Made by a program: the position numbers and the translations under genes | Shown here: positions 5,165-42,122 of the stretch, in pieces | How the letters are laid out: each line of letters opens with the position of its first letter | Position numbering within the stretch: position 1 is the stretch's first letter | IMG/VR virus record: IMGVR_UViG_2541047913_000004 | Reading direction: 5' to 3' (one strand) | DNA length: 42,122 nucleotides | Source of the DNA: a virus | Lineage: Duplodnaviria > Heunggongvirae > Uroviricota > Caudoviricetes | Notes under the pieces: generated by a model | The model's database searches: none | The model's input: only the letters and a program-made list of their open reading frames with translations | Told to the model about the DNA's origin: nothing

Positions 5165-5839
5165 TTAAGCTTTGATTTTGTATCTTCTTGGTTTTCCTGA
5201 GAAAATCACAGTTCCAATTATAGAGCAATTACCGTTGATCTTAATGTAAGGCTCAGGCCAGTTTGGGTTTAACGCTTTGAGATAACGCTGTGTCCCATCT
5301 TCTATCAACCTTTTGAAGGTGGTTTCACCTGTATCGTGCATCAATGCAATAACGTCGTCACCGTGGCAGGCAGGTACTTCAGGATCGACAAAAATCATGT
5401 CTCCCGGGCGGTACTCATCAATCATTGAATCACCTATCACCCGCAAGATATAAGTCATTTCCCCACAGGGTACAGGGCAGGGATACGTTTCTGCTGTGCT
5501 CAAATCAACCTCAGAATATCCAACTTCTTTCCATGCTCCGGCCTGTACCCATGATATGACAGGGACTAATGTGATTTGTTTATTAGTGATTGAAACATCA
5601 GGTTTTTTTGTGATGTTCGTTGTCTGGTGTTCTTGATCGAGCCATCCGACAGGCAGGTCGAAACATTTTTCTATGTGTCGTGCCATGCTGTCACCGATAT
5701 TTTTAGTAGCACCATCTCCCATAAACCTGCTGGTCTGGGTTGGCTCGCGATCAATCATAGTGGCAAAGGAAGAATTCCCGCCAACACCATCTCTCAGTTT
5801 TCTGGCGTTAGACCGCCGGATGTCATGGATTGTTTTCAT
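5165..5839 (-). CDS. cI: CI-type prophage repressor with LexA-like S24 autopeptidase domain, 224 aa
   Basis: C-terminal domain carries the Ser nucleophile in ...VIGDSM... and a downstream Lys (...TFKRL...), as in LexA/CI self-cleaving repressors. Divergently arranged with a Cro-like gene across an operator-containing intergenic region. Confidence 0.85.
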   Translation of the reverse strand: MKTIHDIRRSNARKLRDGVGGNSSFATMIDREPTQTSRFMGDGATKNIGDSMARHIEKCFDLPVGWLDQEHQTTNITKKPDVSITNKQITLVPVISWVQAGAWKEVGYSEVDLSTAETYPCPVPCGEMTYILRVIGDSMIDEYRPGDMIFVDPEVPACHGDDVIALMHDTGETTFKRLIEDGTQRYLKALNPNWPEPYIKINGNCSIIGTVIFSGKPRRYKIKA

Positions 5840-6130: not shown

Positions 6131-6369
6131 CAGAACACTTTCAATTTTTAACCACAGAACGATGAGGCTAATCGTGGGTAAGCATCACTGGAAAATAGAA
6201 AAACAGCCTGAGTGGTACGTGAAAGCTGTCAGAAAAACTATCGCGGCGTTGCCGGGTGGTTACGCTGAAGCGGCTGATTGGCTCGATGTAACAGAAAACG
6301 CTTTATTCAACCGCCTGAACCGCCCCGGGAATCCTGGAGACTAAACTTCCTGAGAAAGAGGTAAACAGG

Positions 6370-6696
6370 ATGACTAAAAATACTCGTTTTTCCCCCGAAG
6401 TCCGTCAACGGGCAGTCCGTATGGTTCTGGAAAGTCAGAGCGAATATGACTCACAATGGGCGACAATTTGTTCCATTGCTCCAAAGATTGGCTGTACGCC
6501 GGAGACTCTGCGTGTCTGGGTTCGCCAGCATGAGCGGGATACCGGGGGCGGTGATGGAGGGCTCACCACCGCTGAACGTCAGCGTCTGAAAGAGCTGGAA
6601 CGTGAAAATCGTGAACTGCGCCGCAGTAACGATATCCTTCGCCAGGCTTCCGCTTATTTTGCGAAGGCGGAGTTCGACCGCCTCTGGAAAAAATGA
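6370..6696 (+). CDS. IS629 OrfA (transposase N-terminal HTH protein), 108 aa
   Basis: HTH and leucine-zipper-like sequence typical of IS3-family OrfA; ends in an A6 run (6688-6693) that overlaps the orfB start. Confidence 0.9.
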
Positions 6697-7583
6697 TGCC
6701 ACTGCTGGATAAGCTGCGTGAGCAGTACGGGGTCGGACCGCTATGCAGCGAACTGCATATTGCCCCGTCAACGTATTACCACTGTCAGCAACAGCGACAT
6801 CATCCTGATAAACGCAGTGCCCGTGCGCAGCGCGATGACTGGCTGAAGAAAGAGATACAGCGCGTATACGATGAAAATCACAAGGTATACGGTGTGCGTA
6901 AAGTCTGGCGTCAGTTGTTACGGGAAGGTATCAGAGTGGCCAGATGCACTGTGGCACGTCTCATGGCGGTTATGGGACTTGCCGGTGTTCTCCGGGGTAA
7001 AAAGGTCCGTACGACCATCAGCCGGAAAGCCGTTGCCGCAGGCGACCGCGTAAACCGTCAGTTCGTGGCAGAACGACCTGACCAGCTGTGGGTGGCTGAT
7101 TTTACTTACGTCAGCACATGGCGGGGCTTCGTCTATGTGGCGTTCATCATTGATGTGTTTGCCGGATACATCGTGGGGTGGCGGGTCTCATCGTCCATGG
7201 AAACGACATTCGTGCTGGATGCACTGGAGCAGGCGTTATGGGCCCGTCGACCGTCCGGCACGGTCCATCACAGTGATAAAGGTTCTCAGTATGTATCGCT
7301 GGCCTACACACAGCGGCTTAAGGAAGCCGGATTACTGGCATCAACAGGAAGTACAGGCGACTCGTATGACAACGCGATGGCGGAGAGCATCAATGGTCTT
7401 TACAAAGCGGAGGTAATACACCGTAAGAGCTGGAAAAACCGTGCAGAAGTGGAACTGGCCACACTCACGTGGGTGGACTGGTATAACAATCGACGATTGC
7501 TGGAAAGGCTGGGCCATACTCCTCCGGCAGAAGCAGAAAAAGCTTATTATGCTTCCATCGGAAACGATGATCTGGCAGCCTGA
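6693..7583 (+). CDS. IS629 OrfB (DDE transposase catalytic domain), 296 aa
   Basis: DDE/RNase H-fold integrase-like region (...WVADFTYV... ...HSDKGSQY... ...DNAMAES...). Lies in the -1 frame relative to orfA, so an OrfAB fusion by -1 frameshifting at the A6 run is expected. Confidence 0.9.
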
Positions 7584-8034
7584 GTTCACAGATAAAACAC
7601 TCTCCAGGAAACCCGGGGCGGTTCAGCCTTCGTGCAGATGGCGATCAGATTTTCCCGCTGGGATGGGCAATGGTTTTACAGCGTGCTGGTGGCACTCACT
7701 TCATTGCTGATGCTGTGGCGCAGTCTGCAAATGGCGTCTTTGTGTCTCTTCCTGACGTCGAGGATGTGGACAACGCCGATATTAACCAGCGCCTGCTGGA
7801 AGTCATTGAACAGATCGGCAGTTATTCAAAACAGATTCGTTCAGCAATTGAAGACGGTGTAGTGGAACCGCATGAGAAGACAGCAATTAACGACGAGCTG
7901 TACCTCTCAATTTCGAAGCTGCAGGAGCATGCAGCACTGGTCTACAAAATTTTTTGCATTTCAGAAAGTAATGACGCCCGCGAGTGTGCAGCTCCGGGCG
8001 CCGTGGCGTGTCGTGACTGTGGAGAAACTAACGC

Positions 8035-13593: not shown

Positions 13594-14691
13594 TTAGAAC
13601 TGGTAAACCAGACCTACAGCAACGATGTCATCAGTGCTTACACCGAGTGCTTTAGTGAAGTCATTTTTGTCAAGCAGGTTGATTTTGTAATCAACGAAAG
13701 TAGACATATTTTTGTTGAAGTAATAGGTTGCACCTACATCAACATATTTGACTAAGTCCTGATCGCCCCATACTCCAAGATCCTTACCTTTAGATTGCAG
13801 GTAAGCAACGGACGGACGCAGACCGAAATCGAACTGATATTGTGCAACAGCTTCGAAGTTTTGAGCTTTATTAGCAACGAAGTGATCAGCAAATACAGTC
13901 ATATTCTGGGTTTCAGAATAGGTAGTGGCCAGGTAAATGTTGTTAGCGTCATATTTCAGACCTGCGGCCCAAACTTCTGCATTTTTACCGGAAGCAAATA
14001 CTTCAGGAAGAACTTTCCCTGCATTAACTTGAGTGTCGGTACGATCAGATTTCGCATAAGTTGCACCGATACCGAATCCTTCGTATTCATAGGTAGCAGA
14101 GAAACCGAAGCCATCACCGTTACCTTCGGTGTAGTTATCGAAATCGCTACGATCGTTTTTGCCTTGGTACTGAGCAGCAAAGTTCAGACCATCAACCAGA
14201 CCAAAGAAGTCGTTGTTACGATAGGTTGCAACACCAGTGGTGCGACCAGTCATGAACACATCTGTTTGGGTCCAGGTATCGCCACCGAATTCTGGCAGAA
14301 CGTCAGTCCACGCACCGATGTCGTATGCTACACCGTAGTTACGGCCGTAATCGATTGAGCCGTAGTCACCGAATTTCAGGCCTGCAAATGCAAGACGGGT
14401 TTTGTCTTTGGAGGAACCTTGAGATTCAGCGCGGTTGCCTTTGAATTCATATTCCCACTGACCGAAACCAGTCAGCTGATCGTTGATTTGGGTTTCGCCT
14501 TTGAAGCCCAGACGAACATAAGTAGTATCACCATCATCTGCATCGTTAGAGGAAAAGTAGTGCTTGGCATTAACTTTCCCGTACAGATCCAGCTTGTTAC
14601 TGTCTTTATTATAAATTTCAGCTGCCTGAGCAGACATCGCCATCAGTACTGATGCAGCTACAGCAGAAATTGCCACTGTTAATTTTTTCAT
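13594..14691 (-). CDS. nmpC: Outer-membrane porin NmpC/Lc (OmpC/OmpF family), 365 aa
   Basis: Signal peptide ([23 protein letters not shown]), porin beta-barrel pattern and C-terminal ...VGLVYQF; intact, with no IS5 interruption. Confidence 0.9.
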
Positions 14692-34027: not shown

Positions 34028-37000
34028 ATGGGTAAAGGAAGCAGTAAGGGGCATACCCCGCGCGAAGCGAAGGACAACCTGAAGTCCACGCAGTTGCTGA
34101 GTGTGATCGATGCCATCAGCGAAGGGCCGGTTGAAGGTCCGGTGGATGGATTAAAAAGCGTGCTGCTGAACAGTACGCCGGTGCTGGACACTGAGGGGAA
34201 TACCAACATCTCCGGTATCACGGTGGTGTTCCGTGCCGGTGAGCAGGAGCAGACACCGCCGGAGGGATTTGAATCCTCCGGCTCCGAGACGGTGCTGGGT
34301 ACGGAAGTGAAATATGACACGCCGATCACCCGCACCATTACGTCTGCAAACATCGACCGTCTGCGCTTTACCTTCGGTGTACAGGCACTGGTGGAAACCA
34401 CCTCAAAGGGTGACAGGAATCCGTCGGAAGTCCGTCTGCTGGTTCAGATACAACGTAACGGTGGCTGGGTGACGGAAAAAGACATCACCATTAAGGGCAA
34501 AACCACCTCGCAGTATCTGGCCTCGGTGGTGGTGGGTAGCCTGCCGCCGCGCCCGTTTAATATCCGGATGCGCAGGATGACGCCGGACAGCACCACAGAC
34601 CAGCTGCAGAACAAAACGCTCTGGTCGTCATACACCGAAATCATCGATGTGAAACAGTGCTACCCGAACACGGCACTGGTCGGCGTGCAGGTGGACTCGG
34701 AGCAGTTCGGCAGCCAGCAGGTGAGCCGTAATTATCATCTTCGCGGGCGCATTCTGCAGGTGCCGTCGAACTATAACCCGCAGACGCGGCAATACAGCGG
34801 TATCTGGGACGGAACGTTTAAGCCGGCATACAGCAACAACCCGGCCTGGTGTCTGTGGGATATGCTGACCCACCCGCGCTACGGCATGGGGAAACGTCTT
34901 GGTGCGGCGGATGTGGATAAATGGGCGCTGTATGTCATCGGCCAGTACTGCGACCAGTCAGTGCCGGACGGTTTTGGCGGCACGGAGCCGCGCATCACCT
35001 GTAATGCCTACCTGACCACGCAGCGTAAGGCGTGGGATGTGCTCAGTGATTTCTGCTCGGCGATGCGCTGTATGCCGGTATGGAACGGGCAGACGCTGAC
35101 GTTCGTGCAGGACCGACCATCAGATAAGGTGTGGACCTATAACCGCAGTAATGTGGTGATGCCGGATGATGGCGCGCCGTTCCGCTACAGCTTCAGCGCC
35201 CTGAAGGACCGCCATAATGCCGTTGAGGTGAACTGGATTGACCCGAACAACGGCTGGGAGACGGCGACAGAGCTTGTTGAAGATACGCAGGCCATTGCCC
35301 GTTACGGTCGTAATGTCACGAAGATGGATGCCTTTGGCTGTACCAGCCGGGGGCAGGCACACCGCGCCGGGCTGTGGCTGATTAAAACGGAACTGCTGGA
35401 GACGCAGACCGTGGATTTCAGCGTGGGTGCTGAAGGGCTTCGCCATGTACCGGGCGATGTCATTGAAATCTGCGATGATGACTATGCCGGTATCAGCACC
35501 GGTGGTCGCGTGCTGGCGGTGAACAGCCAGACCCGGACGCTGACGCTCGACCGTGAAATCACGCTGCCATCCTCCGGTACCACGCTGATAAGCCTGGTTG
35601 ACGGAAGTGGTAATCCGGTCAGCGTGGAGGTTCAGTCCGTCACCGACGGACTTAAGGTGAAAGTGAACCGGGTTCCTGACGGCGTTGCAGAATACAGTGT
35701 GTGGGGGCTGAAGTTGCCGACGTTGCGTCAGCGCCTGTTCCGCTGTGTGAGTATCCGTGAGAACGATGACGGCACGTATGCCATCACTGCCGTGCAGCAT
35801 GTACCGGAAAAAGAAGCCATCGTGGATAACGGGGCGCACTTTGACGGCGACCAGAGCGGCACGGTGAATGGTGTCACGCCGCCAGCGGTGCAGCACCTGA
35901 CCGCCGAAGTCACCGCAGACAGCGGGGAATATCAGGTGCTGGCGCGCTGGGACACGCCGAAGGTGGTGAAGGGCGTGAGCTTTATGCTTCGCCTGACCGT
36001 GGCAGCGGATGACGGCAGTGAGCGGCTGGTCAGCACGGCCCGGACGACGGAAACCACATACCGCTTCACGCAACTGGCTTTGGGAAACTACAGGCTGACA
36101 GTCCGGGCGGCAAATGCCTGGGGGCAGCAGGGCGATCCGGCGTCGGTATCGTTCCGGATTGCCGCACCGGCAGCACCGTCGCGGATTGAGCTGACGCCGG
36201 GCTATTTTCAGATAACCGCCACGCCGCATCTTGCCGTTTATGATCCGACGGTACAGTTTGAGTTCTGGTTCTCGGAAAAGCGGATTACCGATATCAGGCA
36301 GGTTGAAACCACAGCCCGCTATCTTGGCACGGGGCTGTACTGGATAGCCGCCAGTATCAATATCAAACCGGGCCATGATTATTATTTTTACGTTCGCAGT
36401 GTGAACACCGTTGGCAAATCGGCATTTGTGGAGGCCGTCGGTCGGGCGAGCGATGATGCGGAAGGTTACCTGGATTTTTTCAAAGGCAAGATAACCGAAT
36501 CCCATCTCGGCAAGGAGCTGCTGGAAAAAGTCGAGCTGACGGAGGATAACGCCAGCAGACTGGAGGAGTTTTCGAAAGAGTGGAAGGACGCCAACGATAA
36601 GTGGAATGCCATGTGGGCTGTCAAAATTGAGCAGACCAAAGACGGCAAACATTATGTCGCGGGTATTGGCCTCAGCATGGAGGACACGGAGGAAGGCAAA
36701 CTGAGTCAGTTTCTGGTTGCCGCTAACCGTATCGCATTTATTGACCCGGCAAACGGGAATGAAACGCCGATGTTTGTGGCGCAGGGCAATCAGATATTCA
36801 TGAACGACGTGTTCCTGAAACGCCTGACGGCACCCACCATTACCAGCGGTGGCAGTCCTCCGGTATTTTCCCTGACATCAGACGGAAAGCTGACCGCTAA
36901 AAATGCGGATATCAGTGGCAGTGTGAATGCGAACTCCGGGACGCTCAACAATGTCACGATAAATGAAAACTGTACGATTAAGGGCATGCTGGAGGCGACC

Positions 37001-37441
37001 CAGGTCAGAGGGGATTTCGTTAAAGCTGTATCAAAAGCCTTCCCGAAAAAAGTCGGTACGTGGGGTAACACGGAAACACCAAACGGTACGGTTACAGTCA
37101 CCATCAGCGATGATCATAACTTTGACCGCCAGATTATTATTCCGCCCATTATTTTTAACGGTATAGCGTATGACGATCCGGGGAGCGGAAATAACCCAGG
37201 AGGCACGCGATACACGGGTTATGGTTTTGAAGTTCGCAAAAACGGCGTATTAATCGCATCCAGAGAAACTAAAGGGGCCATTCCCGGTAGTTACAGTGCG
37301 GTTATTGATATGCCGAGTGGCAGGGGAAGCGTCACTCTGGAGTTTAAGATTTTCCAGAAAGGCAATCAGGGGGCAGGGAATATCACCGATTGTACAGTGA
37401 TTGTGACCAAAAAAGCGGCTTCCGGTATCAGTATTCGTTGA
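34028..37441 (+). CDS. J: Central tail fibre / host-specificity protein J, 1137 aa
   Basis: Lambda gpJ-like over most of its length; the C-terminal region appears to differ from lambda J as I recall it. Confidence 0.95.
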
Positions 37442-37511: not shown

Positions 37512-38111
37512 ATGCGTAAAGTTTGTGCAGCCATTTTGTCCGCAGCCATTTGTCTGGCCGTATTCGGTGCGCCTGCATGGGCATCTGAACATCAGTCCAC
37601 GCTGAGCGCGGGGTATCTTCATGCCTTGACGAACGTTCCCGGCAGCGATGATCTTAACGGGATTAACGTGAAATACCGTTATGAGTTTACGGACACACTG
37701 GGGCTGGTGACGTCATTCAGCTATGCAGGAGACAAGAATCGCCAGCTGACCCGTTACAGCGATACCCGCTGGCATGAAGATTCCGTGCGTAACCGCTGGT
37801 TCAGCGTGATGGCGGGGCCGTCTGTGCGCGTGAATGAATTGTTCAGCGCGTATGCGATGGCGGGTGTGTCTTACAGCCGTGTGTCGACTTTCTCCGGAGA
37901 TTATCTGCGGGTGACCGACAACAAGGGGAAAACGCATGATGTGCTGACCGGAAGTGATGACGGTCGCCACAGCAACATGTCTCTGGCGTGGGGGACTGGC
38001 GTGCAGTTTAACCCGACCGAATCCGTGGCCATTGATGTCGCTTATGAAGGTTCCGGCAGTGGTGACTGGCGCACTGACGGTTTCATCGTGGGTGTCGGTT
38101 ATAAATTCTGA
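37512..38111 (+). CDS. lom: Lom outer-membrane protein (Ail/PagC/OmpX family), 199 aa
   Basis: Signal peptide (...FGAPAWA) and beta-barrel pattern ending ...GFIVGVGYKF; same position as lambda lom. Confidence 0.9.
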   Translation: MRKVCAAILSAAICLAVFGAPAWASEHQSTLSAGYLHALTNVPGSDDLNGINVKYRYEFTDTLGLVTSFSYAGDKNRQLTRYSDTRWHEDSVRNRWFSVMAGPSVRVNELFSAYAMAGVSYSRVSTFSGDYLRVTDNKGKTHDVLTGSDDGRHSNMSLAWGTGVQFNPTESVAIDVAYEGSGSGDWRTDGFIVGVGYKF

Positions 38112-38137: not shown

Positions 38138-38165
38138 AGCCCGCCGGTTCAGGCGGGCTTTTTTG
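38138..38165 (+). terminator. Rho-independent terminator after lom
   Basis: AGCCCGCC-GGTTCA-GGCGGGCT followed by TTTTTT. Confidence 0.7.
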
Positions 38166-38175
38166 TGGGGTGAAT

Positions 38176-41100
38176 ATGGCAGTAAAGATTTCAGGTGTAC
38201 TGAAAGACGGCACAGGAAAACCGGTACAGAACTGCACAATCCAGCTGAAAGCAAAACGTAACAGTACCACTGTGGTGGTGAACACGCTGGCCTCAGAAAA
38301 TCCGGATGAAGCCGGGCGTTACAGCATGGACGTTGAGTACGGTCAGTATAGCGTTATTCTGTTGGTGGAGGGATTCCCGCCGTCACATGCCGGGACCATC
38401 ACCGTGTATGAAGATTCTCAACCCGGTACGCTGAATGATTTTCTCGGTGCCATGACGGAGGATGATGCCCGTCCGGAGGCACTGCGACGTTTTGAACTGA
38501 TGGTGGAAGAGGTGGCGCGTAACGCGTCCGCGGTGGCACAGAACACAGCAGCCGCGAAGAAGTCAGCCAGCGATGCCAGCACATCAGCCCGTGAGGCGGC
38601 AACCCATGCGACTGATGCTGCAGGCTCAGCACGCGCAGCCAGCACGTCAGCCGGACAGGCCGCGTCGTCGGCTCAGTCAGCGTCTTCCAGCGCAGGAACG
38701 GCATCAGCAAAGGCCACTGAAGCATCAAAAAGTGCTGCCGCTGCAGAGTCCTCAAAAAGCGCGGCGGCCACCAGTGCCGGTGCCGCGAAAACGTCTGAAA
38801 CGAATGCTGCAGCGTCACAACAATCAGCAGCCACTTCTGCATCCACCGCGACCACGAAAGCGTCAGAAGCTGCCACCTCAGCCCGGGATGCGTCGGCTTC
38901 AAAAGAGGCGGCAAAATCATCAGAAACGAGCGCAGCCTCGAGCGCCAGTAGTGCAGCCTCCTCGGCTACGGCGGCAGGAAATTCCGCGAAGGCGGCAAAA
39001 ACGTCCGAGACGAACGCCAGGTCTTCTGAAACGGCAGCGGGACAGAGCGCCTCAGCTGCGGCAGGCTCAAAAACAGCGGCTGCGTCGTCTGCCAGTGCCG
39101 CGTCAACAAGTGCCGGGCAGGCCTCAGCCAGTGCCACCGCTGCCGGAAAGTCGGCAGAAAGTGCCGCATCGTCTGCTTCAACAGCCACAACGAAGGCTGG
39201 CGAAGCCACTAAACAGGCCAGCGCAGCAGCGAGGTCTGCTTCCGCAGCGAAGACATCCGAAACGAACGCGAAAGCGTCGGAAACCCGTGCAGAATCCTCA
39301 AAAACGGCAGCTGCATCGTCAGCCAGTTCGGCGGCGTCATCGGCCTCATCGGCGTCTGCTTCAAAAGATGAGGCGACCAGACAAGCGTCAGCAGCGAAGA
39401 GTAGCGCCACGACGGCATCCACGAAGGCGACAGAGGCAGCTGGCAGTGCGACGGCGGCAGCTCAGAGCAAAAGTACGGCGGAATCCGCGGCAACGCGCGC
39501 CGAGACAGCAGCTAAACGGGCAGAGGATATTGCATCCGCCGTGGCGCTTGAGGATGCGAGCACGACGAAAAAGGGGATAGTACAGCTCAGCAGTGCGACC
39601 AACAGCACGTCTGAAACGCTGGCGGCAACGCCAAAGGCAGTAAAAGCAGCCAATGACAATGCTGAGAAACGTCTGCAGAAAGACCAGAACGGCGCTGATA
39701 TACCCGATAAGGGACGCTTCCTGAACAACATTAACGCGGTCAGTAAAACAGACTTTGCTGATAAGCGTGGTATGCGTTATGTGCGGGTTAACGCTCCTGC
39801 AGGTGCAACATCTGGAAAATATTACCCTGTTGTTGTTATGCGTTCTGCTGGCTCAGTAAGCGAACTGGCATCAAGGGTCATTATCACCACGGCAACGCGA
39901 ACCGCAGGCGATCCGATGAATAACTGCGAGTTTAACGGATTTGTTATGCCTGGTGGCTGGACTGACAGGGGGCGTTATGCTTATGGAATGTTCTGGCAAT
40001 ATCAAAACAATGAACGAGCCATCCACTCAATAATGATGAGTAATAAGGGCGATGATTTGCGCTCTGTGTTCTATGTTGATGGCGCTGCTTTCCCTGTTTT
40101 TGCGTTTATCGAAGATGGCCTGTCAATATCCGCACCTGGTGCTGATCTCGTTGTTAATGATACGACCTATAAGTTTGGGGCAACAAATCCAGCGACTGAA
40201 TGTATCGCGGCGGACGTTATCCTTGATTTTAAGAGTGGGCGTGGTTTTTATGAGTCCCATTCGTTAATCGTTAACGATAACTTGTCGTGCAAAAAACTTT
40301 TTGCCACAGACGAAATTGTAGCGCGTGGTGGTAATCAGATTCGAATGATAGGTGGGGAGTATGGGGCATTATGGCGTAATGATGGCGCTAAAACTTACCT
40401 GCTGCTTACCAATCAAGGTGATGTTTATGGTGGCTGGAATACATTAAGACCGTTTGCTATTGATAACGCAACCGGCGAACTGGTTATTGGAACCAAACTG
40501 TCTGCAAGTCTGAACGGTAACGCATTGACAGCAACAAAGCTGCAAACGCCAAGACTGGTTTCTGGGGTTGAGTTTGATGGTTCAAAAGATATTACTTTAA
40601 CCGCCGCGCATGTGGCTGCTTTTGCCAGAAGGGCAACGGATACATATGCCGATGCGGATGGTGGCGTTCCCTGGAATGCCGAATCAGGCGCTTACAATGT
40701 CACCCGCTCTGGCGACAGCTATATTCTGGTTAACTTCTATACCGGAGTCGGAAGTTGCCGGACCCTGCAGATGAAGGCGCATTACAGAAATGGAGGTCTG
40801 TTCTACCGTTCCTCAAGAGATGGCTATGGTTTTGAGGAAGGCTGGGCAGAAGTTTATACCTCGAAAAATCTTCCACCAGAAAGCTACCCAGTTGGCGCAC
40901 CAATTCCGTGGCCATCAGATACCGTTCCGTCTGGTTATGCCCTGATGCAGGGGCAGACTTTTGACAAATCTGCATACCCGAAACTTGCAGTTGCTTATCC
41001 GTCAGGCGTGATCCCTGATATGCGTGGCTGGACGATTAAGGGCAAGCCCGCCAGTGGTCGTGCCGTATTGTCTCAGGAACAGGACGGCATTAAATCGCAC

Positions 41101-41538
41101 ACCCACAGCGCCAGCGCATCAAGTACGGATTTGGGTACGAAAACCACATCGTCGTTTGATTACGGCACTAAATCTACGAATAACACCGGGGCACATACAC
41201 ACAGTGTGAGCGGCTCTACAAACTCGGCTGGAGCACACACACACTCACTAGCCAACGTGAACACGGCTAGTGCTAACTCCGGTGCTGGTAGTGCATCAAC
41301 AAGATTGTCTGTTGTGCATAATCAAAACTATGCAACATCATCTGCTGGCGCACATACCCACTCACTGTCCGGCACTGCTGCAAGCGCAGGTGCACACGCA
41401 CATACTGTCGGTATTGGTGCTCATACGCACTCGGTTGCGATTGGCTCACATGGACACACCATCACCGTTAACGCTGCTGGTAACGCGGAAAACACCGTCA
41501 AAAACATCGCATTTAACTATATTGTGAGGCTTGCATAA
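38176..41538 (+). CDS. stf: Side tail fibre protein Stf, 1120 aa (enlarged relative to the lambda Stf as I recall it)
   Basis: Lambda-Stf-like N-terminus ([26 protein letters not shown]...); a long Ala/Ser/Thr-rich low-complexity repeat region; a central domain that differs from lambda; C-terminal distal-fibre region with repeated GAHTHS/GAHAHT/GSHGHT His-x-His motifs ending ...[11 protein letters not shown]. Confidence 0.85.
38540..39530 (+). repeat. Ala/Ser-rich coding repeat region inside stf
   Basis: Reiterated peptide units (...AAKTSETNA... four times; ...SAASSA... many times) with matching DNA-level repeats; the compositional bias produces long spurious ORFs in other frames. Confidence 0.6.
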
Positions 41539-42122
41539 TGGCATTCAGAATGAGTGAACAACCACGGACCATAAAAATTTATAATCTGCTGGCCGGAACT
41601 AATGAATTTATTGGTGAAGGTGACGCATATATTCCGCCTCATACAGGTCTGCCAGCAAACAGTACCGATATTGCACCGCCAGATATTCCGGCTGGCTTTG
41701 TGGCTGTTTTCAACAGTGATGAGGCATCGTGGCATCTCGTTGAAGACCATCGGGGTAAAACCGTCTATGACGTGGCTTCCGGCGACGCGTTATTTATTTC
41801 TGAACTCGGCTCATTACCGGAAAATGTCACCTGGTTATCCCCGGAAGGGGAGTTTCAGAAGTGGAACGGCACAACCTGGGTGAAAGATGCAGAAGCAGAA
41901 AAACTGTTCCGGATCCGGGAGGCGGAAGAAACAAAAAACAGCCTGATGCAGGTAGCCAGTGAGCATATTGCGCCACTTCAGGATGCTGCAGATCTGGAAA
42001 TCGCAACGGAGGGAGAAACCTCGTTGCTGGAAGCCTGGAAAAAGTATCGGGTGTTGCTGAACCGTGTTGATACATCAACTGCACCTGATATTGAGTGGCC
42101 TACGAACCCTGTCAGGGAGTAA
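41538..42122 (+). CDS. tfa: Tail fibre assembly protein Tfa, 194 aa
   Basis: 194 aa, coupled by TAATG to stf; lambda Tfa-like; its stop codon is the last 3 nt of the window. Confidence 0.9.

Follow-up and report, generated by a model that had tools for sequence, protein, structure and literature searches.

An StfR-type side tail fibre gene in a lambda-like prophage, with a proposed rod, shaft and metal-needle architecture

Very probably, the stf gene in the window (the whole 42,122-nt stretch of viral DNA analysed here, IMG/VR record IMGVR_UViG_2541047913_000004) encodes a side tail fibre of the StfR allele, carried by a lambda-like prophage whose integrase is of the DLP12 type (intD); we model this protein as a proximal rod, a central shaft and a distal metal-binding needle. 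The model is based on results computed here: homology, the order of the domains, the register of the heptads, conservation of the histidines, purifying selection and frequency in the population. From these we infer the trimeric state, the binding of metal, the length of the rod and the role in adsorption. The features are collected in Table 1.

Table 1. Features of the side tail fibre locus, with positions in the window and residues (aa) of Stf
Feature	Position	Strand	Description
Terminator-like hairpin and T-run	38138..38169	+	After lom, immediately 5' of the stf ribosome-binding site
stf	38176..41538	+	One intact ORF, 1120 aa, StfR-type side tail fibre
N-terminal tail-attachment domain	38176..38457	+	aa 1-94, inside Pfam phage_tail_N (aa 1-134)
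Ala/Ser/Thr-rich tract	38518..39546	+	aa 115-457, 49 uninterrupted heptads xSAxxAx, putative proximal trimeric coiled-coil rod
15 heptads (105 aa) present in window Stf and StfR, absent from lambda	39097..39411	+	aa 308-412; global alignment and single-gap scan
Tandem repeat, 9 nt x 2.4	39332..39353	+	TRF; SSA repeats at aa ~386-393; -3 aa polymorphism at aa ~387
Central shaft	39547..40878	+	aa 458-901, unrelated to the lambda central region
gp37-type collar and needle	40879..41535	+	aa 902-1120, seven HxH metal sites (predicted); Pfam Collar and Phage_fiber
Tip subdomain	41245..41334	+	aa 1024-1053, presumed receptor-contact cassette
tfa	41538..42122	+	Tail fibre assembly chaperone, 194 aa; start overlaps stf stop; PF02413 E = 9.6e-44

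The start of stf was placed at ATG 38176, because GGGGTG lies 5-6 nt upstream and the proteins of lambda and K-12 begin with MAVKISGV; initiation at the in-frame GTG at 38170 would instead yield a product of 1122 aa. Compared with StfR of the Rac prophage of E. coli K-12 (WP_000279097.1), window Stf was identical at 1103 of 1120 positions (98%), with equal length, no gaps and 17 substitutions. This collinear near-identity, which places the protein in the StfR allele, ran over the full length, central shaft and tip included, and the two shared 49 heptads, seven HxH motifs and an identical tip. The window protein was an exact match of the RefSeq entry WP_021564955.1, which falls with a representative of the same length (1120 aa) in a cluster of 15,543 proteins. 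Copies of stf covering at least 80% were found in 1231 of 5426 complete E. coli genomes, and the Stf proteins of the sequenced phages 2H10, mEp332, Kati, ev099, PhiR34_1 and Turner were 84-95% identical in the aligned parts. Judged by its sequence, window stf is an ordinary fibre allele that is already known and is very common in prophages of E. coli. The dN/dS against K-12 stfR was 0.08 for the whole gene; by region, it was 0.04-0.13 across coiled coil, shaft and needle (0.13 in the Ala/Ser tract), and the N-terminal domain had zero nonsynonymous differences. These ratios indicate purifying selection on stf.

Stf had been described from the letters alone as enlarged, at 1120 aa against 774 aa in lambda. 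Both lengths were confirmed; however, K-12 StfR also has 1120 aa, so the size is nothing special. The 346 extra residues were the balance of gains of 105 in the tract and 269 in the central region and a loss of 28 at the C-terminus. The extra length had been ascribed to the Ala/Ser/Thr repeat and a different centre, and both indeed contributed, but the tract accounted for only 105 of the 346 residues (~30%). BLASTP of aa 458-903 against lambda Stf gave no significant similarity, in line with the proposed difference of the central domain. Heptad counts were 49 in the window, K-12 StfR, PhiR29_1 and 2H10, and 34 in lambda; lambda is therefore simply the shorter class. The length gap to lambda is a matter of cassette choice and not of recent repeat expansion, and the long Ala/Ser rod and His-rich tip are standard traits of the StfR fibre family.

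Two other readings of the length were considered. According to the first, which we hold to be unlikely, coiled-coil length is a selected setting of "reach" that changes in large whole-heptad blocks. The known classes comprise 34 heptads in lambda, 49 in the StfR class and 64 in one E. coli genome (P0002), and both steps are of 15 heptads (105 aa), although the part of the tract concerned is not the same (aa 308-412 in the first step, aa 189-293 in the second). If this were true, diverged blocks of heptads would seem to undergo unequal exchange, with selection acting on register and perhaps also on a preferred length quantum, and the length could match, for example, the thickness of O-antigen or capsule relative to the central fibre. 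Among the 26 homologue clusters with tract indels, only five differed by a multiple of 7, and heptad quantization is thus confined to the large class differences. A 105-aa or other super-period was not clearly seen in the tract, where lag identities were flat at multiples of 7 (0.38-0.46, with 77 marginally the highest).

According to the second reading, which seemed to us quite unlikely, Stf is unusually enlarged and its tract is a hypervariable contingency region that changes by slipped-strand or unequal recombination. Length variation by slippage had been predicted by the sequence-only reading, and rare variants of that kind exist: tandem duplications of 105 aa (P0002), 40 aa (P0016) and 7 aa (P0019, P0025, P0028, and P0064), and a deletion of 28 aa in P0013 that falls precisely between the copies AAKSSET and AAKTSET, which share 9 nt. 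A change of -3 aa at the 9-nt micro-repeat occurred in about 9-10 of ~120 homologue clusters, and across the PF08400 family the tract ranged from ~20 to 349 aa. However, these variants were single-member clusters, some of them from draft assemblies, and no tract indel was found in 92 of 118 full-length homologue clusters, nor did K-12, 2H10 and PhiR29_1 depart from 49 heptads. Frequent copy-number polymorphism was thus not seen among the close relatives in these 118 clusters. A search of the tract for long, near-identical tandem DNA repeats was likewise negative: the longest exact repeat in its 1038 nt was 12 nt, against a codon-shuffled mean of 12.1 and a maximum of 15; the diverged repeat families were 15-46 nt long with 63-87% identity; and the only true tandem DNA repeat that TRF reported in stf was the 9-nt unit in 2.4 copies. 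The peptide AAKTSETNA, said to recur four times, was exact at three places (aa 203, 273, and 357), the fourth being the variant AAKSSETSA (aa 245), and these four copies were encoded by differing codons. The dN/dS of the tract also indicates constraint. The truly variable parts of the homologues lay elsewhere: length varied more in a 44-aa module that follows the coiled coil, as seen in 76 of 118 clusters, and in the tip cassette. Cassette choice remains our explanation of the length difference, and the prediction of slippage was weakly supported.

The late operon ended in the order J (34028-37441), lom (37512-38111), stf (38176-41538) and tfa (41538-42122), the same as in lambda and 2H10 and as expected for the lambda Stf/StfR family. 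The adjacent Tfa (Caudo_TAP) is also typical of this family, and the window protein was 94% identical to lambda Tfa and likewise to K-12 TfaR. K-12 stfR sits in a truncated, defective Rac remnant, whereas window stf follows J and lom in a complete lambda-like prophage. The state of that best-known copy would agree with a reading in which window stf, too, is a decaying remnant from which no functional fibre is made, and so would an IS element inserted in a cII-like gene in the early regulatory region of the prophage. We consider this very unlikely, since the ORF of 1120 codons was uninterrupted with an intact tfa, the whole-gene dN/dS was low, the full lambda-like structural gene set was present with 97% identity to plaque-forming phages, and the allele, identical tip included, occurred in the isolated phage Turner. 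Because of the IS element, the stf copy here may nevertheless lack expression from an inducible phage. Invertase crossover sites of the AAACCNNGGTTT type and long inverted repeats were searched for in stf and tfa and none was found. The window ends at the tfa stop, and an invertase may lie beyond it, as one does downstream in K-12 and 2H10; in K-12 it is pinR that follows stfR-tfaR of Rac.

The StfR-type fibre gene begins with a match to PF08400 (phage_tail_N) that covered the whole profile (1-134 of 134; E = 1e-71). The 94-aa chain of the lambda Stf N-domain in PDB 9e7m/9mgh matched the same N-terminus (E = 6e-52). The Ur-lambda Stf N-domain forms a dodecameric collar at the gpV/gpM junction (PMC12617516).

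The tract that follows showed continuous heptad periodicity in a single register with small or apolar core positions, as in a coiled coil. Of the 49 heptads, 47 had Ala at position 6, 35 had Ala at position 3, and 37 had Ser at position 2; the lag-7 autocorrelation of Ala was 0.46 (z = 8.6 against shuffles). The composition of aa 135-470 was 37% Ala, 24% Ser and 12% Thr. Residues 102-393 of Ur-lambda Stf were modelled as a coiled coil (PMC12617516), and the first 307 aa of window Stf, including ~190 aa of the tract, were 87% identical to that protein and shared its heptad pattern. By analogy, with helicity and oligomeric state carried over from the Ur-lambda model, the tract probably forms a proximal trimeric helical rod. 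That it is instead a disordered linker of low complexity, or an artefact of assembly, is extremely improbable: the extreme composition (73% Ala+Ser+Thr) and the 23 LCRs with which StfR has been flagged as an outlier in low complexity (PMC12695832) stand against a register unbroken over 343 aa with Ala at nearly all d-like positions, a homologous lambda segment that cryo-EM/ET with AlphaFold3 showed as a rigid coiled coil in the proximal fibre (PMC12617516), and a tract alike in length and sequence in >1000 complete genomes.

In the central shaft, aa 440-521 and aa 812-907 were similar to Mu gpS (PDB 5YVQ, 8JU3), in which they matched residues 90-172 and 321-415 (profile E = 6e-49), and aa 663-777 resembled the trimerization domain of T4 gp34 (Pfam Gp34_trimer, E = 3.4e-27). 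The PDB matches of the shaft were 8ju3, 5yvq, 4uxe and 5nxf. Unlike window Stf, Mu gpS is a myovirus baseplate fibre without the PF08400 N-domain, long coiled coil or gp37-type needle. The matches to Mu gpS and gp34 became better with a profile built from the fibres of phages 9g, JenK1 and HdK1, and no PDB search, including that with this profile, returned a solved homologue for aa ~522-700. The AlphaFold2 model of aa 458-905 (20 homologues) was unusable (pLDDT 29.2, pTM 0.20) because the alignment was 98-100% identical. The shaft architecture was thus assigned in part. PhiR29_1 was 99.4% identical to the left arm of the window, yet it carried another central module and tip. At the level of sequence, Stf is a mosaic of exchangeable cassettes, and their exchange is shown directly by PhiR29_1. 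The natural exchange points of the fibre were located near aa 510, near aa 880-900 and at aa 1014-1055.

The collar and needle were homologous to the solved needle of T4 gp37 (domains D10-D11), with a collar that is split by a stem-and-tip insertion. The phmmer match to 2XGF covered its residues 27-242 with 154 of 219 identical (70%; E = 2e-88); 61 of 71 residues were identical in the collar, and 39 of 50 and 34 of 50 in the stem. At this identity, monomer prediction of an intertwined trimer was deemed unnecessary and unreliable for the C-terminal 350 aa. Where six or more GAHTHS-type repeats had been announced, there were seven HxH motifs (aa 975, 1007, 1021, 1060, 1074, 1083, and 1092), five of the form GAHxH[ST] plus GSHGHT and KSHTHS. 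The domain limits and seven iron sites of gp37 are known (PMC6957217). All 14 histidines aligned in register with the iron-coordinating pairs of gp37 (883/885, 915/917, 929/931, 966/968, 980/982, 989/991, and 998/1000), which upheld the proposed likeness to the metal-coordinating T4 fibre. By analogy with gp37, we infer that the needle binds metal and that its trimer is intertwined.

The tip was divergent from that of gp37 (residues 932-959), being two residues longer and identical at only 4 of 28 positions. It was an indel hot spot among the homologues, and an identical tip occurred in only 10 of 118 clusters, in K-12 StfR and in a single isolated phage, Turner. A divergent, variable tip fits the earlier suggestion of a specific receptor, although the receptor contact is presumed. 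Of the eight T4 tip residues other than histidine that are critical for OmpC/LPS binding (I933, N937, G938, G940, G942, G943, S947 and Y949), only N937 and G943 were kept; OmpC or LPS binding therefore cannot be assumed for window Stf. The architecture, adsorption role and OmpC role of the Ur-lambda fibre have been described (PMC12617516), and the OmpC specificity of lambda cannot be transferred to window Stf. Literature searches turned up nothing on the receptors of StfR-type fibres or of phages Turner, Kati, Chlobot and the PhiR series.

By homology with Ur-lambda Stf, the protein would trimerize, and aa 1-94 would dock on the tail just above the tail tip. The Ala-core coiled coil of 49 heptads would give a thin rod of ~51 nm, ~15 nm beyond that of the 34 heptads of lambda, and would be followed by a beta-structured shaft of Mu gpS-like and T4 gp34-like modules. 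In the distal gp37-type collar and needle, the three chains would be fastened together by seven metal ions, with six histidines of the HxH motifs coordinating each ion, and the 30-residue tip loop would presumably touch the receptor. The Tfa chaperone, in place of gp38/gp57A in T4, would fold the distal end. The side fibre is predicted to accelerate the reversible phase of adsorption, before J, the central fibre, engages its own receptor.

As an annotated, very common fibre in which every domain has a characterized relative, Stf has little discovery value. What it offers is a map of the domains of the StfR allele at the level of residues, with attachment domain, rod, shaft, seven-site needle and 30-residue tip, and exchange points that could serve as junctions for engineers of lambda-based delivery particles. 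The tip would be easy to test for a receptor, as it is common to K-12 StfR and phage Turner.

Among the other known fibres, Ur-lambda Stf was 71% identical in the collar and needle, whereas its central region was unrelated, with a length of only about 178 aa where window Stf has 447, and it had eight HxH motifs and a longer, different tip. The fibres of the virulent Queuovirinae phages 9g and JenK1 aligned collinearly over the full length of window Stf with 46-49% identity. The shaft was shared by 9g, JenK1 and HdK1, at 62-70% identity for aa 522-777 (up to 81% in the domain-by-domain tabulation) and 52-81% for aa 778-901; however, the N-domain and coiled coil of these fibres were far more divergent (35% identity), and they contained extra shaft repeat modules. 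Eight HxH motifs were present in the 9g fibre, and the database record of 9g carries the remark 'similar to lambdoid Rac prophage'.

The stf gene was a single unbroken ORF of 1120 codons, and its product begins MAVKISGV. An in-frame GTG is located 6 bases upstream of the ATG; this start is less likely because a Shine-Dalgarno-like GGGGTG sits at the right distance from the ATG and the lambda and K-12 proteins start alike. StfR, the side tail fibre of the E. coli K-12 Rac prophage, was identical to the window protein at 1103 of 1120 positions (98%) with equal length and no gaps, and the genes shared 97.4% DNA identity. The length of 774 aa given for lambda Stf by the sequence-only reading was confirmed from the Ur-lambda record KT232076. 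Since K-12 StfR has equal length, the description of the window fibre as enlarged was largely an artefact of a lambda-only comparison; the protein is already known, and the window carries it in the form that is usual for it. The exact protein was found as RefSeq WP_021564955.1 (E. coli UMEA 3201-1), its 90%-identity cluster held 15,543 database sequences, and among 5426 complete E. coli genomes, 1231 had a copy that spanned 80% or more of stf. The same type occurred in the sequenced phages 2H10, mEp332, Kati, ev099, and PhiR34_1 (93–95% identity) and Turner (84%). Compared with K-12 stfR, there were 71 synonymous and 17 non-synonymous differences, with a dN/dS of 0.08 for the whole gene and 0.13 for the Ala/Ser tract, which indicated that all parts of stf are under purifying selection.

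Judged by its sequence, the window is a lambda-like prophage. The structural genes were ~97% identical to those of lambda-group phages, and the right end had the canonical order J-lom-stf-tfa. With intD at the left edge and the tfa stop exactly at the right, it has the appearance of an entire lambdoid prophage of the DLP12 site. Beyond the window, the closest genome continued with a ybcY-like methyltransferase gene, a tfa fragment, and an alpha/beta hydrolase gene, followed by ompT and envY. A hairpin resembling a strong terminator, found between lom and stf, ended ~10 nt 5′ of the stf ribosome-binding site; given this hairpin, stf expression would require antiterminated late transcription.

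Features of the window and of the Stf protein
Feature	Position	Strand	Remarks
intD	1–1164	−	DLP12-type integrase, 387 aa; several E. coli genomes carry it at 100% identity
cI-like repressor	5165–5839	−	
IS3-family element	6317–7625		~1.3 kb
IS3-family orfA	6370–6696		HTH_Tnp_1
ALIL frameshift pseudoknot	6651–6767		Rfam; in IS3-family element
IS3-family orfB	6693–7583		rve
General porin	13594–14691	−	365 aa; Porin_1 (Pfam), E = 1.8e-156
Terminator-like hairpin	38138–38169	+	8 pairs (7 G-C), then T-run
stf	38176–41538	+	
Alternative ORF in tract	38573–39580	+	335 aa
Alternative ORF in tract	38673–39422	−	249 aa
Tandem repeat in tract	39332–39353		9 nt × 2.4
tfa	41538–42122	+	94% identical to lambda Tfa and to TfaR (Rac assembly chaperone)
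Rfam IS009 (RF02111)	41881–42079	+	Full-length, inside 3′ part of tfa CDS; 225.7 bits (gathering score 117)
Stf N-terminal domain	aa 1–134		Pfam phage_tail_N, E = 1e-71
Stf Ala/Ser/Thr tract	aa 115–457		Exactly 49 heptads, single register, xSAxxAx

Residues 1–94 of Stf matched the lambda Stf N-domain chain (PDB 9e7m/9mgh), which in Ur-lambda builds a collar at the gpV/gpM junction (PMC12617516). In the heptads of the tract that follows, Ala occupied position 6 in 47 of 49 and position 3 in 35, and Ser occupied position 2 in 37; the lag-7 autocorrelation of Ala was 0.46 (z = 8.6 against shuffles). The lambda tract comprised 34 heptads, likewise unbroken, and the difference was one block (window Stf aa 308–412). 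At a coiled-coil rise of ~0.15 nm per residue, the rod would be ~51 nm long, vs. ~35 nm in lambda. The alternative long ORFs in the tract translated into low-complexity strings, Pro/Arg/Gln-rich or Ala/Asp-rich, consistent with a by-product of GCN/TCN codon bias rather than genes.

The surplus of 346 aa over lambda consisted of +105 in the coiled coil, +269 in the central shaft, and −28 in the C-terminal needle. The sequence-only reading had attributed it to the repeat tract and a different central domain. Both contributed, and the shaft was indeed unrelated to that of lambda; however, the tract was the minor source, because it supplied 105 aa against 269.

That reading also proposed length variation of the tract by slipped recombination. 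The peptide AAKTSETNA, counted four times, occurred exactly three times (aa 203, 273, and 357), the fourth copy being the variant AAKSSETSA (aa 245); apart from this detail, the description of Stf was accurate. Codon usage differed among the four AAK(T/S)SET(N/S)A copies. Within the 1038-nt tract, exact direct repeats reached at most 12 nt (codon-shuffled controls: mean 12.1, maximum 15), repeat families were 15–46 nt with 63–87% identity, and Tandem Repeats Finder detected only the 9-nt repeat. Thus, no DNA-level slippage hot spot was found in the tract by exact repeats, repeat families, or Tandem Repeats Finder.

Of the 118 full-length clusters (90% identity) nearest to Stf, 92 carried no indel in the tract, and K-12 StfR, 2H10, and PhiR29_1 all had exactly 49 heptads. 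The other 26 clusters, every one single-member, represented real repeat-mediated events, including tandem duplications of 105, 40, and 7 aa and a 28-aa deletion precisely between AAKSSET and AAKTSET copies. About 9–10 clusters had a change of −3 aa at the 9-nt micro-repeat, and the net change was a multiple of seven in just 5 of the 26. Among PF08400 family representatives, the tract ranged from ~20 to 349 aa, with modes near 230–239 (lambda class) and 337–349 (StfR class). Tract length therefore evolves, but slowly and rarely; the window copy is the standard state of the StfR class, and the label "slippage-prone" was again largely due to comparison with lambda only.

In the shaft, aa 440–521 and 812–907 matched phage Mu gpS (PDB 8ju3/5yvq), and aa 663–777 matched the T4 gp34 trimerisation domain (PF21446; PDB 4uxe/5nxf); PDB searches by sequence found no solved homologue for aa ~522–700. 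The virulent phages 9g, JenK1, and HdK1 shared the shaft, with 62–70% identity over aa 522–777 and 52–81% over aa 778–901. Two Shigella sonnei homologues (P0001 and P0006) had insertions of 53 and 106 aa after window Stf aa 719 in the gp34-like domain, which suggests a second copy-number-variable module. A 44-aa module directly after the coiled coil had one or two extra copies in 76 of 118 clusters; the window Stf had the form without an extra copy. This module and the fibre tip, rather than the Ala/Ser tract, were the parts that truly varied.

Residues 902–1120 were 70% identical to T4 gp37 residues 811–1026 (PDB 2XGF, E = 2e-88). Seven HxH motifs (at least six had been reported) were located within the last 150 aa, six of them as G[AS]HxH[ST], whereas lambda Stf had eight. 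All 14 of their histidines paired one-to-one with those of gp37, in which HxH histidines from three chains hold seven iron ions along the needle (PMC6957217). This supported the proposed likeness to gp37, and the C-terminus is probably a metal needle of that type. With domain limits as published (PMC6957217), identities were 61/71 in the collar, 39/50 and 34/50 in the stem, and just 4/28 in the tip, where T4-critical residues were mostly not conserved. An identical tip was found in just 10 of 118 clusters and one isolated phage, Turner, and aa 1024–1054 formed an indel hot spot.

PhiR29_1 was 99.4% identical to the window in the left arm and ~97% in the structural genes. Its Stf (964 aa) had the same N-domain and coiled coil but another tip and, between breakpoints close to aa 510 and aa 880, another central module. 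Because this near-identical relative differs in these parts, its Stf is direct evidence for cassette exchange, which fits the recombination of lambda stf-tfa with Rac shown experimentally (PMC3945230).

By analogy, the window fibre would most likely work like that of Ur-lambda, in which four trimeric side fibres reach from the tail, are the first to touch the cell surface, in a reversible manner, and speed adsorption before J engages its receptor (PMC12617516). Known receptors are OmpC, and possibly the unmodified O16 antigen, for lambda Stf, OmpC and LPS for T4 gp37 (PMC6957217), and galactose of the LPS core for Gifsy-1 Stf.

The IS3-family element was absent from PhiR29_1, which was 98–99% identical on either side. 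It splits the ymfL/CII-like (Phage_CP76) gene adjoining the cI-like repressor, and thus early regulation of the prophage may be damaged. The prophage also carried a porin gene, whose counterpart in PhiR29_1 was annotated as OmpD. The porin is presumably similar to the NmpC/Lc porins carried by DLP12 and PA-2, and its expression in a lysogen might alter which porins the cell displays and, as a result, how sensitive the cell is to phages that depend on porins.
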